From a bacterium UBA6025 (GTDB taxonomy: Bacteria; Patescibacteriota; Saccharimonadia; Saccharimonadales; Saccharimonadaceae), in contig DIZP01000036.1 in the NCBI GenBank assembly GCA_002429375.1, positions 1 to 33,174 on the forward strand: a DNA stretch of 33,174 nucleotides, written 5' to 3'. Positions 26,213-31,185 of the stretch are shown piece by piece; position 1 is the stretch's first letter; each line of letters opens with the position of its first letter. The notes beneath the pieces were generated by a model. That model was not told where the DNA came from and ran no database searches. It saw only the letters and a list, made by a program, of their open reading frames with translations. The position numbers and the translations under genes were made by a program.

Positions 26213-27223
26213 ATGAACAGAGTTGCAATTGTCGTATTAAACTGGAACGGAATTGAAGACACTTTATTGTGCCTTGAGTCCCTATTGTCGCAAAGCTATA
26301 AACAGTTCCATATTGTGGTTATCGACAATGGATCAATCGATAATTCAAAAGAGTTATTAGAATCGTACCGCACGAAGCACAGCGATAAAATCGAGGTAAT
26401 CTATAACCCTATCAACTTCGGATTCGCCGGCGGAGTCAACACCGGTATTGAGTGGGCCCTTAATGAAGATTTTGAATACGTGGCGCTGTTTAACAATGAT
26501 GCCATCGCTGATAAAGACTGGCTAAAGAGCCTGGTCGAAGCTGCTCGGCCCAAAGAAGTTGGTATTACTACCGGGTTGCTGCTTCACGAAAACGGCAAAA
26601 CAATCGACAGTAGCGGTGACTGGTTGTCATCATGGGGGCTCGCCTTTCCGAGGAATCGGGGAGACAACACCGCAAAAGCATTCAAGGCCGGACCGGTTTT
26701 TGGCGCCACCGGTGGCGCTAGCCTGTATAAAACCGCCTTATTCAAAGACATCGGTCTATTTGACGAGGACTTTTTTGCCTACTACGAAGACGCTGATATT
26801 AGCTTCCGGGCGCAGCTGGCTGGCTGGAAAGTTGCCTATACGCCAAAGGCAATCGCTTATCACAAACAAGGAGCAACCAGTAGAAAAATCCCTGGTTTTA
26901 CCACTTATCATACCTTTAAGAACCTACCGTTATTGTTTCTGAAGGATGTTCCTCGCGGCCTATTATTCTCTGTTGGTATTCGATTTTATTTCGCCTACTG
27001 GCTCATCTTGCTTAATGCCATAGCCAAAGGCAACGGTATACCGGCGATAAAAGGGGCTGGGATGAGTTTTATCCTGGGATTCAAAAAACTCGGTGAGCGT
27101 AGAGCGATACAAAAAAACAAACGCGTCACGACAAGCTATATCAAAAGTATCCTGTGGAATGATCTGCCCCCCGATCAGACAGGTGTACGAAAATTGCGAA
27201 AGCTTTTCACTAGCAAGGATTAG
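26213..27223 (+). CDS. GT2 glycosyltransferase (WbbL/rhamnosyltransferase-like subgroup)
   Basis: 336 aa. VAIVVLNWNGIEDTLLCLESLLSQ...VVIDNGSIDNS...FNNDA...YYEDADISFR is the pattern of the GT2 'N-terminal NWNG' subgroup. Confidence 0.75.
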   Translation: MNRVAIVVLNWNGIEDTLLCLESLLSQSYKQFHIVVIDNGSIDNSKELLESYRTKHSDKIEVIYNPINFGFAGGVNTGIEWALNEDFEYVALFNNDAIADKDWLKSLVEAARPKEVGITTGLLLHENGKTIDSSGDWLSSWGLAFPRNRGDNTAKAFKAGPVFGATGGASLYKTALFKDIGLFDEDFFAYYEDADISFRAQLAGWKVAYTPKAIAYHKQGATSRKIPGFTTYHTFKNLPLLFLKDVPRGLLFSVGIRFYFAYWLILLNAIAKGNGIPAIKGAGMSFILGFKKLGERRAIQKNKRVTTSYIKSILWNDLPPDQTGVRKLRKLFTSKD

Positions 27224-27296
27224 TTTCTAATTTTTATTGGACAATAAACAATCCTTACTTTTTGGCCTAAAAGTAACAAAAGGCCTTCTTTTGGCT

Positions 27297-27312
27297 GCAA
27301 AAGAATCAAAAC
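27297..27312. repeat. Left core-flanking inverted repeat of element 1 (GCAAAAGAATCAAAAC)
   Basis: Its reverse complement matches 27621-27636 (GTTTTGCTTCTTTTGC) at 15 of 16 positions. It marks the exact boundary at which the core flips relative to element 2. Confidence 0.85.
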
Positions 27313-27620
27313 TGCTGGGGTTGATGGATTATCGCGGCTAAAGATATCACAATCACTCTTAGTATTCTGCGTAACTCGCTTTCAGCTCAAACATACTCGA
27401 ATAGCTAGGAGTGTATTGCGATATTTTTACCGGATAATTCAGAGACCCAAGACCCCACGAGCTACGAGGGAGCTCAGTCGGCATCTGCAGCTGCCCGAGG
27501 CGAGCGGGTGGTTCAAGACTGATTAAGCGCGAGGATGTTTGAACCGCTGGTAAGCGGTGAGTTCCGCAGCGCCAGTCTTGAACCGCCCGGTAGTCCCGGT
27601 GCAGTGAAGCCGCCGAAAAT

Positions 27621-27636
27621 GTTTTGCTTCTTTTGC
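27621..27636. repeat. Right core-flanking inverted repeat of element 1 (GTTTTGCTTCTTTTGC)
   Basis: Partner of 27297-27312. Confidence 0.85.
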
Positions 27637-27725
27637 ACACCAAAAGAAGCTCGTTTGATTACTTTCCGAGTCGAAAGTAAGGATTAGAGATTATTGAAAG
27701 CTAAATTCCACCAACAACCCCTCGA

Positions 27726-27734
27726 TGTTATAAT
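27726..27734 (+). promoter_or_regulatory. Extended -10 TGTTATAAT predicting a leaderless sucC mRNA
   Basis: The TATAAT hexamer is at 27729-27734, so the predicted +1 at 27741 is the A of the sucC ATG. No Shine-Dalgarno is present. Confidence 0.5.
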
Positions 27735-27740
27735 TTATAA

Positions 27741-28829
27741 ATGAAACTGCTTGAATACGAAGCGAAAAATATATTATCTCTTTCAGGGATTGTTACTCCC
27801 CGCTCGTCGATAATTCATCAAAATGATTCAGCCCAGCTCACCTTTCCTGTGGTTCTAAAATCACAAGTGCCAACTGGTGGGCGCGGGAAGGCGGGGGGTA
27901 TACGAATTGTTAACGATAAAGATAGTTTGCAGCAGACAATCAATGAATTGTTTGAGCTCTCAATTAAAGACTACCGTCCACAAATCCTTCTGGCGGAAGA
28001 GAAGTTAGCTATTTCCCACGAGTATTACCTGTCGCTGGTTATCGACAAGCCAACCGCCGAGATTCGCTTGATGGCACACATAAACGGTGGGGTTGAGGTC
28101 GAGGAGAATCCCCAGGACAGCTTCCTGGGGATGGTAGTTAGTAGTGAGTATATGGTAGGTAGTAATAATAACTTCGAGGCGGCCGGCGAACGATTAGCCG
28201 AGTACTTAAATCTGCCTGGGCGGAGTTTTGTCTTGCAAGATTTGGTGGAGAATTTATACAAATGTTTTGTGACAAATGACGCCACGTTGCTCGAGATTAA
28301 CCCTTTGGTTTTTACCGATAACGAAAAATTCGTGGCTGGTGACTGCAAGATGGAACTTGATGACAGTGCGGCCTTCCGCCACGACTGGAAGTTTGAAGAT
28401 AAGGCGACTGAAGCCAATTTTGTCACCCTGGATCCTGGCGGCACCGTGGCGACGATTGCCAATGGTGCCGGGCTGGCCATGGCGACCGTTGACGCCGTGT
28501 CAGACTTCGGCATGGTACCGGCTAACTTCCTCGACATTGGTGGCGGCTCCAACACCGAGACTCTAGTAGCTGCTTTTCGGCGCATTACCGAATACCCAAA
28601 CATCCAGGCGATTGTGATCAACGTTTTCGCTGGCATCAGCCGCTGCGACGAGGTAGCTCGAGCGATTATTGCTGCTAAAAAACAGATTACGAATCTTCCC
28701 CCGCTATTTATTCGACTGGCGGGCACGAATTTCGAGGCAGCCGCCGATTTACTCTCACAAGAAAACATCCCTATCCTCGCCACTCTCGAGGAATGCCTGG
28801 CAGCCGCCAAACAAGAGGTGCCGTCGTGA
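27741..28829 (+). CDS. sucC: Succinate--CoA ligase (ADP/GDP-forming) beta subunit
   Basis: 362 aa. MKLLEYEAKNIL... and PTGGRGKAGGIRIV parallel the E. coli SucC motif GGRGKAGGV. ATP-grasp N-terminus and CoA-ligase C-terminus. Confidence 0.85.
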   Translation: MKLLEYEAKNILSLSGIVTPRSSIIHQNDSAQLTFPVVLKSQVPTGGRGKAGGIRIVNDKDSLQQTINELFELSIKDYRPQILLAEEKLAISHEYYLSLVIDKPTAEIRLMAHINGGVEVEENPQDSFLGMVVSSEYMVGSNNNFEAAGERLAEYLNLPGRSFVLQDLVENLYKCFVTNDATLLEINPLVFTDNEKFVAGDCKMELDDSAAFRHDWKFEDKATEANFVTLDPGGTVATIANGAGLAMATVDAVSDFGMVPANFLDIGGGSNTETLVAAFRRITEYPNIQAIVINVFAGISRCDEVARAIIAAKKQITNLPPLFIRLAGTNFEAAADLLSQENIPILATLEECLAAAKQEVPS

Positions 28830-29695
28830 AAAATACGCTCTTTTCGGCCCAGAACGTCATCGTCCAAGGAATTACCGGTGGCCACGGCCACTTCCAAACC
28901 AAAGCCATGTTAGCTGCAGGGACGACTGTTGTTGCTGGTACAACACCAGGCAAGGCTGGTCAGGTCGTCGAAGGAGTACCAGTTTATGACTCAATTGCCG
29001 ACATTCAAAAAAACCACACGGTTGATACGACGGTCGTTTTTGTCCCTGCTCCGTTTGCCAAATCCGCTATCATGGAGGCGATTACCGCCCACATCCCCTT
29101 GATTGTGTGTATTACCGAAGGCGTGCCGATTCACGACATGCTTCAGATTAAAAAAAGGCTAGCTGGTTCGGGTAGCACCCTGATTGGACCAAACTCGCCA
29201 GGCGTTATCGTTCCGGGTGTGAATAAGCTGGGGATAATTCCCGCCAACATGTCCCTGCCGGGCCACACAGCCATCGTCAGCCGCTCTGGCACCCTGACCT
29301 ATGAAACAATGGCGGGCTTGAGCGCAAAGGGCATAGGCCAGCGCTACGTCATCGGGACTGGCGGCGATCGCATCCGTGGCACTGGCTTTATTGACTGCCT
29401 GGAATTATTTGAAAATGACCCCGAAGTTGATCAAATCGTGCTGATTGGTGAAATCGGGGGTGCCGACGAACAATTGGCGGCCGACTACATCGCCACATCC
29501 GTCACCAAGCCGGTCTTTGCCTATGTTGCCGGTCATCACGCGCCGGTTGGCGTTCAGCTCGGTCACGCCGGCGCCATCCTGGGGAGCGCCGATGAATCCG
29601 CCGCCAGTAAGACTGAGGCTTTGGCAAAAGCCGGTGCACAGGTGGCGACAAGTATTACGGGATTGATTGAGTTGATAATAAATAATTTCTGTTAG
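28826..29695 (+). CDS. sucD: Succinate--CoA ligase alpha subunit
   Basis: QGITGGHGHF, GTTPGKAG, SRSGTLTYE and the phosphohistidine loop GHAGAI are present. GTG start at 28826 overlaps the sucC stop (GTGA), with an AAGAGG Shine-Dalgarno at about 28812. Confidence 0.9.
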   Translation: MKNTLFSAQNVIVQGITGGHGHFQTKAMLAAGTTVVAGTTPGKAGQVVEGVPVYDSIADIQKNHTVDTTVVFVPAPFAKSAIMEAITAHIPLIVCITEGVPIHDMLQIKKRLAGSGSTLIGPNSPGVIVPGVNKLGIIPANMSLPGHTAIVSRSGTLTYETMAGLSAKGIGQRYVIGTGGDRIRGTGFIDCLELFENDPEVDQIVLIGEIGGADEQLAADYIATSVTKPVFAYVAGHHAPVGVQLGHAGAILGSADESAASKTEALAKAGAQVATSITGLIELIINNFC

Positions 29696-29785
29696 TTAAC
29701 AGGGATAATCCTTGCTTTTTTTAGCTGGAGAGCTAAGAGTCCTTACTTTTTGGCCACAAAGTAACAAAAGGCCTTCTTTTGGGTA

Positions 29786-29801
29786 GCAAAAGAAGCAAAA
29801 C
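29786..29801. repeat. Left core-flanking inverted repeat of element 2 (GCAAAAGAAGCAAAAC)
   Basis: Perfect 16/16 reverse complement of 30104-30119. Confidence 0.9.
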
Positions 29802-29851
29802 ATTTTCGGCGGCTTCACTGCACCGGGACTATCCGTCGGCCCAAGACTGGC

Positions 29852-29884
29852 GCTGCGGAACTCGCTGCGCTCAAACATCCTCGC
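29852..29884. repeat. Inner 33-bp perfect inverted repeat, left copy (GCTGCGGAACTCGCTGCGCTCAAACATCCTCGC)
   Basis: Exact reverse complement of 30018-30050. The two copies enclose a 133-bp centre. Confidence 0.9.
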
Positions 29885-30017
29885 GCTTAATCAGTCTTGA
29901 ACCAACAGCTCGTCTCGGGCAGCTGCAGATGCCGATTTGGCTACGGAGCTCAAGGAGCCAACGGGGTCTGGGGTCTCTGTAAAGGCCGGATAAAATCGGC
30001 TATTGCTACCTGGATTG

Positions 30018-30050
30018 GCGAGGATGTTTGAGCGCAGCGAGTTCCGCAGC
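30018..30050. repeat. Inner 33-bp perfect inverted repeat, right copy
   Basis: GCGAGGATGTTTGAGCGCAGCGAGTTCCGCAGC is the reverse complement of 29852-29884. Confidence 0.9.
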
Positions 30051-30103
30051 CAACCAAGAAGTAATTGATGGTTTTATGCCGCGGCTTTTCATCAACCCCA
30101 GCA

Positions 30104-30119
30104 GTTTTGCTTCTTTTGC
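30104..30119. repeat. Right core-flanking inverted repeat of element 2 (GTTTTGCTTCTTTTGC)
   Basis: Partner of 29786-29801. Confidence 0.9.
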
Positions 30120-30217
30120 AGCCCAAAAGAAGCGCGTTTGATTACTTTCCGCGTCGAAAGTAAGGATTAAAAAAATAACTCCTCCCTATTAGCTAAATTC
30201 CCTTAGCTCACCCCGAG

Positions 30218-30226
30218 TGTTATACT
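30218..30226 (+). promoter_or_regulatory. Extended -10 TGTTATACT predicting a near-leaderless GT2 operon mRNA
   Basis: The TATACT hexamer is at 30221-30226, so the predicted +1 is about 30233, 2 nt before the ATG at 30235. The surrounding sequence (AGCTAAATTCC...CCCC..G.TGTTATA.T) is homologous to the sucC promoter region. Confidence 0.45.
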
Positions 30227-30234
30227 GATATCAC

Positions 30235-31185
30235 ATGAAAAAAATCAGCATTCTGGTTCCCGCTTACAACGAAGAAGAAGTTTTAGAGGCGCTGTACCAA
30301 CGTCTTGGCAAGCTAGCCAACGACAACAAATCATACGACTTTGAGTTTTTATTCGTCAACGATGGTAGCCGCGACAAAACACTCGAAATCATCCAGGATT
30401 ACGCCGAAAAAGACCAACGCATCGCCTATGTCAACCTGTCGCGCAACTTCGGCAAAGAAATCGCCATGATCGCCGGTCTGGACCACGTGACGGGTGACGC
30501 CACGGTGATTATCGATGCCGACTTGCAGGATCCACCAGAGTTAATCCCTCAAATGATCAAGTTTTGGGAAGACGGTTACGACGACGTTTATGCCAAACGT
30601 AATAGCCGTGCCGGTGAAACATGGCTGAAAAAAATAACCGCCAAAACGTACTACTGGTTACTTCAAAAAACGACCCGGATCACCCTTCAGCCCAATACCG
30701 GCGATTTTAGGCTACTCGATCGACGTTGCGTCGAGGCACTGAAGCAAATTCGCGAGTCGCAACGCTACACCAAAGGGATGTTCAGCTGGATCGGCTACAA
30801 AAAGAAAGAGGTCACCTACGACCGCGACCCCCGATTAGCCGGCGACATCAAACAGAACTATTCAATTCTGATTGACTTGGCGATTGACGGCCTGACCTCG
30901 TTTACCACCGCGCCGCTGCGCCTATCGTCGCTCCTGGGCGGGGTCGTCTCGGTGGCAGCCTTTGTCTACATCATCTACCTCGTCGCCCGGACTATTATTT
31001 TCGGCATCGACCTGGCGGGTTATCCTTCGACAATGGCCGTCATCCTATTCCTGGGTGGCGTCCAGCTGTTGTCGCTGGGCATCATTGGCGAATACATCGG
31101 CCGAATTTTTAACGAAACCAAGCAACGACCGTTATATTTTGTAGAAGAGTACCACCATGGAAAAATTGATAAAAAAACACGCTGA
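30235..31185 (+). CDS. GT2 glycosyltransferase, GtrB/ArnC-like polyprenyl-phosphate sugar synthase
   Basis: 316 aa. ISILVPAYNEE, FVNDGSRDKT, IIDADLQDPPELIP and GDFRLLDRR motifs, with two C-terminal transmembrane helices. Confidence 0.85.
   Translation: MKKISILVPAYNEEEVLEALYQRLGKLANDNKSYDFEFLFVNDGSRDKTLEIIQDYAEKDQRIAYVNLSRNFGKEIAMIAGLDHVTGDATVIIDADLQDPPELIPQMIKFWEDGYDDVYAKRNSRAGETWLKKITAKTYYWLLQKTTRITLQPNTGDFRLLDRRCVEALKQIRESQRYTKGMFSWIGYKKKEVTYDRDPRLAGDIKQNYSILIDLAIDGLTSFTTAPLRLSSLLGGVVSVAAFVYIIYLVARTIIFGIDLAGYPSTMAVILFLGGVQLLSLGIIGEYIGRIFNETKQRPLYFVEEYHHGKIDKKTR

Follow-up and report, generated by a model that had tools for sequence, protein, structure and literature searches.

Two head-to-head palindromic elements beside sucCD in a Saccharibacteria contig are probably copies of a composite repeat family that occurs in several orientation isomers

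The contig DIZP01000036.1 of the Saccharimonadaceae bacterium UBA6025 (33,174 nt; hereafter the window) carries two nested palindromic elements of about 430 bp. The first lies between a GT2 gene and sucC (locus 1) and the second between sucD and a GT2-GtrA-GT4 operon (locus 2). A first-pass annotation of the window had proposed that they are paired invertible DNA switches. Our analysis indicates that they are probably two members of a family of composite palindromic repeats in Saccharibacteria; their differing arrangements are evolutionary isomers and do not demonstrate a regulatory switch. The repeating unit measures ~215-230 nt, and each element is made of two homologous units, A and B, joined 5' to 5'. 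The segments previously called cores are the two unit bodies, and the segments called arms are the 3' modules of the units, each consisting of a hairpin (hp1) and a tail of the alpha or beta type with a second hairpin (hp2). A profile hidden Markov model (HMM) built with nhmmer from 17 units, single and paired, resolved the four window units as two minus/plus pairs. The features of the two elements are listed below, where X is a segment of 3-4 nt at the start of the tail.

27250..27686, both strands: element 1, a head-to-head dimer of unit A (minus) and unit B (plus), isomer alpha-A/B-beta, supported by nhmmer and covariance-model matches
27244..27460, minus strand: unit A1 (body, hp1 and alpha tail), nhmmer E = 1.9e-35; its body scores 84.9 bits against the body covariance model over 27312-27453
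27475..27694, plus strand: unit B1 (body, hp1 and beta tail), nhmmer E = 9.2e-52; it scores 109.4 bits against the body covariance model over 27474-27621
27250..27284, minus strand: alpha tail of A1, with X = GCC and hp2 TTACTTTT/AAAAGTAA, whose loop holds GGC complementary to X
27285..27312, minus strand: hp1 of A1, GTTTTGATTCTTTTGCAGCCAAAAGAAG, located by pattern match and identical at 28/28 positions to the hp1 of the A unit at locus L094
27621..27649, plus strand: hp1 of B1, GTTTTGCTTCTTTTGCACACCAAAAGAAG, identical at 29/29 positions to the hp1 of L034B and terminator-like together with the T-rich stretch after it
27650..27685, plus strand: beta tail of B1, with X = CTCG, which pairs with CGAG in the hp2 loop
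27699..27743, plus strand: flank common with locus 2, AGCTAAATTCC ... TGTTATAAT, then the sucC ATG at 27741
29738..30168, both strands: element 2, a head-to-head dimer of unit B (minus) and unit A (plus), isomer alpha-B/A-beta
29734..29943, minus strand: unit B2, nhmmer E = 7.8e-52, covariance model 104.8 bits; alpha tail 29738-29772, hp1 29773-29801, body 29802-29939
29961..30174, plus strand: unit A2, nhmmer E = 2.7e-41, covariance model 95.3 bits; body 29966-30103, hp1 30104-30132, beta tail 30133-30168
29852-29884 and 30018-30050: 33-nt perfect inverted repeat in element 2 (repeat finder, 100% complementary), formed by the junction motif GCGAGGATGTTTGAGC..GAGTTCCGCAGC of B2 and A2
30191..30237, plus strand: flank of locus 2, AGCTAAATTCC ... 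TGTTATACT, then the ATG at 30235 of the GT2-GtrA-GT4 operon

Each unit begins with GGGGTCTGGGG or a variant of it, followed by CATCTGCAG. A closing helix, P1, adjoins a conserved internal loop (CATCTGCA / GTGAAGCC), and helices P2 to P5 are arranged around a conserved junction, GCGAGGA(C)TGTTTGAGC ... GAGTTCCGCAGC. The junction is followed by GTGAAGCCGCC, then by the 3' strand of the closing helix, and then by GTTTTG with hp1. The 3' tail then consists of X, TTTG, hp2 with the complement of X in its loop, and GGATT. Folded as a whole, the elements form giant hairpins of -203 kcal/mol (element 1, z = -12.6) and -211 kcal/mol (element 2, z about -12). The 33-nt perfect inverted repeat of element 2 suggests that the units within a dimer become homogenised; its counterparts in element 1 are diverged.

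The first-pass annotation had named a structured RNA as one alternative and suggested a covariation analysis, which was carried out here. RNAalifold predicted 38 base pairs, of which 27 have changed on both sides. Standard pairs occupy 88.9% of the cells, compared with 69.4% for shuffled columns and 39-52% for slid partners, and the covariation score of 0.537 (0.181 in shuffled alignments) was reached by 0/500 shuffles. In the tails, complementarity of at least 4 bp between X and the hp2 loop was found in 10/26 units, versus 3% in cross-unit controls, and X occurs in at least ten forms (GCC, CTGC, GCT, CCC, CTCG, TTGG, GAC, CGCG, GCG and ACT). The unit thus has a conserved secondary structure backed by compensatory substitutions, the property generally looked for in structured RNAs. 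A compensatory double substitution is also seen between the two right-arm tails, where CTCG...CGAG (27650-27653/27667-27670) corresponds to CGCG...CGCG (30133-30136/30150-30153); it keeps the segment after hp1 paired with the hp2 loop in a pseudoknot-like contact.

Global alignments and a repeat finder confirmed that both elements are present, with co-oriented outer arms and reverse-complemented interiors. The left arms (27250-27312 and 29738-29801) agree at 58/64 positions and the right arms (27621-27686 and 30104-30169) at 62/66, versus just 53-54/67 between a left arm and the reverse complement of a right arm. Core 1 matches the reverse complement of core 2 at 246/322 positions, as against 192/352 in direct orientation. 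A dimeric repeat can, by its internal symmetry, give rise to co-oriented arms around flipped cores, so this pattern alone is no evidence of a switch.

Each unit was divided into body, hp1 and tail, and the parts were compared separately with copies elsewhere. Only the outer ~35-nt tails (27250-27284, 27650-27685, 29738-29772 and 30133-30168) are truly co-oriented, which is less than the arms first described. The inner 28-29-nt hairpin of each arm is palindromic in itself and, judged against outgroup copies, moves with the core. The body of A1 best matches L034A (120/132), and that of B1 best matches L034B (121/140), with W2B, the B unit of element 2, also a best match. The hp1 sequences match the body types (28/28 with L094A, 29/29 with L034B), which places the exchange points between hp1 and tail and outside the 16-bp repeat, where the switch point had been located. 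The alpha tail of A1 resembles the tail of B2 (32/35), compared with only 25-27/36-49 for A-unit tails elsewhere, and the beta tail of B1 resembles the tails of A2 and L016A (34/36). A body of type A is joined to a beta (CGCG) tail in 11 other copies, namely W2A, L016A, L034A, L094A, L125, two copies of L128 (one with a diverged CGTG), L132, L133, L134 and L135 (with the CTCG variant). Element 1 is the sole case of A with alpha and B with beta. By these comparisons, the inner ~365 bp of element 1, containing both bodies and both hp1, is inverted relative to its tails and flanks. The proposed inversion of the interior in one copy is real in this sense, and the idea of paired invertons with 16-bp recombination sites is unsupported, the 16-bp repeat being the start of the hairpin. 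This 16-mer, GTTTTGCTTCTTTTGC, occurs four times in the window at no more than one mismatch (0.56 expected; 0/100 shuffles reach 4).

We regard it as very improbable that the chimeric element 1 is an assembly artefact, created by an assembler that changed path within palindromic repeats. In its favour, the contig was assembled from short metagenomic reads and the elements have inverted stretches in common. However, the longest shared stretch observed is 46 nt (27591-27636 and 29786-29831), far shorter than the k=119 given in the contig name, which makes misassembly unlikely. The window contig was also recovered with identical sequence in a 66-kb contig of an ENA assembly. Furthermore, the bodies, hp1 and tails of element 1 each have substitutions of their own, including the compensatory pair in the beta tail, and element 1 is hence no mosaic of element-2 sequence.

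The configuration of element 2 is the common one and recurs at the orthologous locus L016, which belongs to the closest relatives of the window, metagenome-assembled genomes (MAGs) labelled Candidatus Saccharibacteria (80% nucleotide identity over 3.8 kb). Three isomers were observed upstream of sucC. Read from left to right toward sucC, they are alpha-B/A-beta in L133, beta-A/B-alpha in L128 and alpha-A/B-beta in the window. L128 and L133, which come from the same source metagenome and are 84% identical in sucC, differ by inversion of the whole dimer. Opposite orientations were found at two more orthologous loci, L034 versus L114 (next to a dus-like gene) and L094 versus L101 (next to a gene ending in ...ELLVLTKI). 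Locus 2 has one and the same orientation in the window and in L016. In the P0009 lineage, where 24 contigs were read and two places could be compared, the two samples are identical at locus 1. The contigs of the window strain are identical too, and differing orientations were seen only between lineages that are ~16% or more apart in sucC. The state of orthologous loci is not fixed among relatives, as the three isomers at sucC demonstrate. As read from these alignments, inversion is a recurrent event on the evolutionary scale.

We infer that the isomers arose by recombination, for which the architecture of the dimer offers a simple route. The two units are inverted homologues along their entire length, and intramolecular recombination or template switching at equivalent positions would flip the intervening segment, which could account for all the states listed above. 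A crossover at the border between hp1 and tail would produce element 1 of the window, and one at the outer hairpins would flip the whole dimer, as between L128 and L133. Several points weigh against this explanation. Recombination is inefficient between repeats of just 9-30 identical bp, and the presence of three isomers at one locus makes a dedicated mechanism conceivable. Inversion may be ongoing within the population. Because L128 and L133 are 16% different in sucC, their difference could also stem from independent insertions or gene conversion and not from inversion in situ.

A dedicated mechanism is the core of the active-inverton explanation, in which a site-specific recombinase encoded elsewhere would recognise the conserved hairpins or the inverted repeats and invert either the interior or the entire dimer. 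Read-through or RNA output toward sucCD and the GT2-GtrA-GT4 glycan operon would then become phase-variable. Several features fit it. Element 1 has its interior inverted with respect to the tails it has in common with element 2, and the flipped interior is bounded by inverted repeats (hp1/hp1' and tail/tail'). Related lineages display three isomers at one locus and opposite orientations at two others. Moreover, hp1 is laid out like a recombinase core site, with fixed 8-9-bp inverted half-sites around a variable spacer, and the elements adjoin surface-glycan genes, a class that phase variation typically affects. We nevertheless consider active inversion quite unlikely. Thirty of the larger open reading frames (ORFs), spread across the window, were compared with Pfam and comprise GT2, GT4, GtrA, ABC-2/Wzt and rhamnose-pathway proteins of envelope polysaccharide synthesis, sucCD and one KH/R3H-domain protein. 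None of them matches a recombinase or transposase family, in line with the earlier remark that the 33-kb window encodes no recombinase. No promoter or coding part whose orientation would alter expression was found in the flipped part. As described before, each element sits directly upstream of a near-leaderless promoter (TGnTATAAT-type), one for sucC and one for the GT2 operon. However, their -10 boxes (27726-27734 for sucC and 30218-30226 for the GT2 operon) are outside the elements and the two element ends are alike, showing the downstream promoters the same ...AAAGTAAGGATT junction, which speaks against the reciprocal or phase-variable control that had been suggested. The hp1 spacer, or loop, ranges in length between 4 and 8 nt, an awkward property for a dimer site in duplex DNA, and hp1 loops move with the bodies, so that the crossover was not in the spacer. 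The hairpin is just as conserved in single units, which are unable to invert, and in other phyla. Since units are often single and the hairpin occurs in many phyla, its conservation needs no inversion function. Finally, the contig was assembled through both elements in a single orientation, and the two P0009-lineage samples share their orientation.

Comparison with relatives also revealed gain and loss of the elements at orthologous sites. At locus 1, just 3 nt and no element separate the GT2 stop from the sucC start in L121 (SucC 88%; the contig ends in sucD) and L122 (SucC 85%). A different gene lies upstream of sucC, again without an element, in L119 and L120 (SucC 91%; both contigs end in sucD) and in L016 (SucC 83%), whose locus 2 carries an element arranged as in the window. 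The body covariance model gave no match in L119, L121 and L122, and the shared flank 27699..27743 is missing upstream of sucC in L119, L016, L121 and L122. In the more distant lineages L128, L133 and L135/L136, units are present between GT2 and sucC. Locus 2 of L122 is a 67-nt sucD-GT2 spacer without an element and with one alpha-type hairpin. This lone hairpin, AATCCTTACTTTTAGGCCAAAAAGTAA (L122 5940-5975), is at the position of the left arm of element 2, directly before the -10 box; it may have been left behind when an element was lost, or have been resident there and served as a target. Locus 2 of L128 (2394-2625) holds an A unit alone, preceded by ~15 nt of a truncated B unit, indicating that half-elements arise by deletion. 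Dimers are also found downstream of orthologous genes in distant Saccharibacteria, namely the dus-like gene (L034, L114) and the gene ending in ...ELLVLTKI (L094, L101), which indicates long-term retention.

The same comparison shows the effect of the insertion at locus 1. There, ~517 bp (window 27224-27741 versus L121/L122 3950-4010) part GT2 from sucC. Element 1 broke up a translationally coupled GT2-sucC pair and supplied sucC with its own promoter. The C-terminal end of GT2 is changed as well, from …FTGK[GP] before the stop codon in the relatives to …FTSKD in the window. The sucC start codon is GTG in L121/L122 and ATG in the window, where the gene also has its own TGTTATAAT box.

Variable presence at identical sites among close relatives is what would be expected of mobile DNA. 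The dimer or its interior could be a non-autonomous foldback element or miniature inverted-repeat transposable element (MITE) that inserted in either orientation into hairpin targets, or whose interior was replaced by gene conversion. In that form, element 1 would be a locus-2-like shell (tails and promoter flank) holding a type-I interior in reverse. Accordingly, its interior is nearest to copies of the L034/L094 type, and its tails and AGCTAAATTCC flank resemble those of element 2. Copies at unrelated loci, the lone alpha hairpin at the empty locus 2 of L122 and the terminal inverted repeats of the elements found by the repeat finder (AATCCTTAC...GTAAGGATT, also read as AATCCTTACTTT...AAAGTAAGGATT) are in agreement with this explanation. 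Even so, we judge it unlikely. No target-site duplication is visible in the filled-versus-empty comparison at either locus, and the empty locus 1 has no hairpin target. The copies within one genome are not near-identical but strongly diverged with compensatory changes, and dimers are kept at orthologous loci across distant Saccharibacteria. No transposase is located nearby, no insertion sequence (IS) was seen in the loci examined, and the hairpin was not found in viral contigs or in plasmid or phage collections. A MITE-like element or a structured RNA, both mentioned as alternatives in the first-pass annotation, are closer to the data than the switch.

Beyond the window, the profile HMM detected another 9 divergent pairs, together with 6 single units, at loci of other Saccharibacteria, and JGI metagenomes contain additional copies. 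These copies are dispersed over unrelated loci, including the regions upstream of sucC and downstream of sucD, the 3' end of dus and tRNA neighbourhoods. They are diverged, with a mean column identity of 53-59%, and at least 6 units with an exact hp1 are present in the most-sampled MAG. At two loci, L074 (480-1310) and L108 (3600-4090), units lie directly beside tRNA genes, and in L074 two divergent units flank a tRNA gene.

The hairpin has a much wider distribution than the units. Its pattern, GTTTTG(C/A)TTCTTTTGC-N3-5-CAAAAGAAG, was scanned over one genome per GTDB species and matched at least 117 loci. The listed hosts include many Saccharibacteria, Daviesbacteria, Bacteroides, other Bacteroidota (among them the isolate Pedobacter paludis), Saprospiraceae, Clostridia, Gemmatimonadales, Glassbacteria and one 'archaeon'-labelled MAG with dozens of copies. 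The stem sequence of hp1 is fixed, and the loop is free in sequence and in length (4 to 8 nt). Outside hp1, each lineage has its own non-coding repeat of 130-400 nt. In the other phyla, the elements with hp1 are intergenic and show a weak bias to positions upstream of a co-oriented gene. The body-only covariance model R1 detects units solely in Saccharibacteria, in agreement with nhmmer, so that no homology is detectable for the bodies that surround hp1 elsewhere, and only hp1 is shared with other phyla. In JGI metagenomes, a shorter hp1 pattern was found at 11 loci, and the B-junction pattern gave no match. There were also no hp1 matches among the 2.9 million viral contigs of IMG/VR. A plasmid or phage origin was rejected on the basis of this result and of BLAST searches of the arms against PLSDB and INPHARED, which returned chance-level matches or nothing. 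A CRISPR array was likewise rejected, as each locus has one hairpin or, rarely, two that are separated by hundreds of bases to kilobases, without spacer periodicity.

The units may act as RNA or as DNA. We lean towards small structured RNAs that would be transcribed outward from the centre of the dimer, with hp1 and the following U-rich stretch as terminator. In the outward direction, hp1 with its T-rich tail has a terminator-like score. An alternative, less probable though still a serious candidate, is that a MITE-like mobile element uses the structure of the units in the form of single-stranded DNA. Several results temper the RNA reading. In the strand test of RNA versus DNA the asymmetry is weak: the forward strand is more stable in 18/26 units, the alifold energy favours it for just one of two alignments, and the excess of G-U over A-C (44 to 13) appears only on the structure predicted from that same strand. 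In addition, -10-like boxes precede the units in some lineages and are absent before compact dimers of the window type. A consensus scan found no sigma-70-like promoter inside element 1 or 2. No Rfam 15 family (of 4227) matched the whole window or 18 related loci at the gathering score, and no family match was obtained at E <= 10 for the window region or at E <= 1 for 8 further loci. The sole sub-threshold match, the plant miRNA model MIR8622, was dismissed as spurious, being a generic long hairpin.

A more far-reaching possibility, which we consider a long shot, is that the units form a new class of structured RNA (or of single-stranded DNA module) in which GTTTTGCTTCTTTTGC-loop-CAAAAGAAG docks a shared host factor and the dimers work as flip-flop cassettes. 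The factor would have to be common to Saccharibacteria, other bacteria of the Candidate Phyla Radiation (CPR), Bacteroidota, Gemmatimonadota-like lineages and Clostridia. By inverting at nested repeat pairs, the cassettes would then alter which RNA body is attached to which 3' pseudoknot, and also which unit faces the downstream operon. If true, this would represent phase variation in ultra-small episymbiotic bacteria.

The elements share features with several known systems. The Correia/NEMIS elements of Neisseria are non-coding intergenic palindromes of 100-155 bp with strong hairpin potential, and are divided into subtypes by the terminal-repeat variant at each end. They adjoin or contribute to promoters, may be co-transcribed with their neighbours, and vary in presence between strains. 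The window elements are similar in their nested palindrome, their combinations of alpha and beta ends and their position directly upstream of -10 boxes. They differ in their size of ~430 bp, in having halves that are 215-nt multi-helix units with covariation, in the lack of a visible TA or other target duplication, in the divergence of copies that are kept at orthologous loci, and in belonging to another phylum. REP sequences, which are associated with RAYT transposases, are species-specific, ~35 nt long and present in hundreds of copies with a GTAG motif. Like REP, BIME and REPIN arrays, the elements described here are mosaics of palindromic modules in alternating intergenic orientation, with a short fixed 5' motif before the hairpin (here GTTTTG) and common inverted doublets. 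Unlike REP, the hairpin is set in a unit of 215-230 nt with a complex fold, and its sequence is identical across phyla.

With invertons such as fimS, hin and the Mpi-dependent promoters of Bacteroides, the elements share a segment bounded by inverted repeats that is found in both orientations relative to fixed flanks, beside surface-polysaccharide genes. In contrast to invertons, no promoter or gene fragment is switched, no recombinase is among the scanned window ORFs, and the repeats are part of a unit that also occurs singly. The units further resemble structured non-coding RNAs such as HEARO/omega RNA of IscB, the IS605-orfB motifs, raiA and ROOL in their length (~200 nt or more), compensatory helices and conserved internal loops. 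As in multi-copy RNAs of this kind, there are several copies per genome, some of them behind -10-like boxes, and a terminator-like hairpin at the end. However, no IscB, TnpB or reverse transcriptase ORF was found near the copies examined, and there was no match in Rfam. Literature searches on the hairpin sequence and on repeats or MITEs of Saccharibacteria returned nothing relevant, and the ~430-bp palindromic repeat has apparently not been described before.

Saccharibacteria have tiny genomes with little non-coding DNA, and we know of almost no regulatory RNA from this phylum. In such genomes, units that fold with compensatory changes, occur in several copies and are gained, lost and flipped among close relatives are unlikely to be junk. 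If they are RNAs, they would constitute an unrecognised RNA class; if they are DNA elements, they would be mosaic palindromic repeats of a new kind, by which operons are reshaped. That hp1 is identical from Saccharibacteria to Bacteroidota and Clostridia and has no match in viral contigs points to a cellular partner common to these hosts. Of more interest than the switch are the hairpin found across phyla and the question whether the units are RNA or DNA.

Two minor observations concern the sequence within and around the elements. A predicted 94-amino-acid ORF on the minus strand (27359-27643) was rejected as a coding sequence, since it has no Pfam match and many indels between the cores are not multiples of 3. 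The sequence GCAAGGATTA, which resembles the tail end, is present at 27213-27222 and 29707-29716, ~20-30 nt upstream of the left arms and in opposite orientations, and its copy at locus 2 forms the stem of the sucD terminator (CAGGGATAATCCTTG, then a T run).

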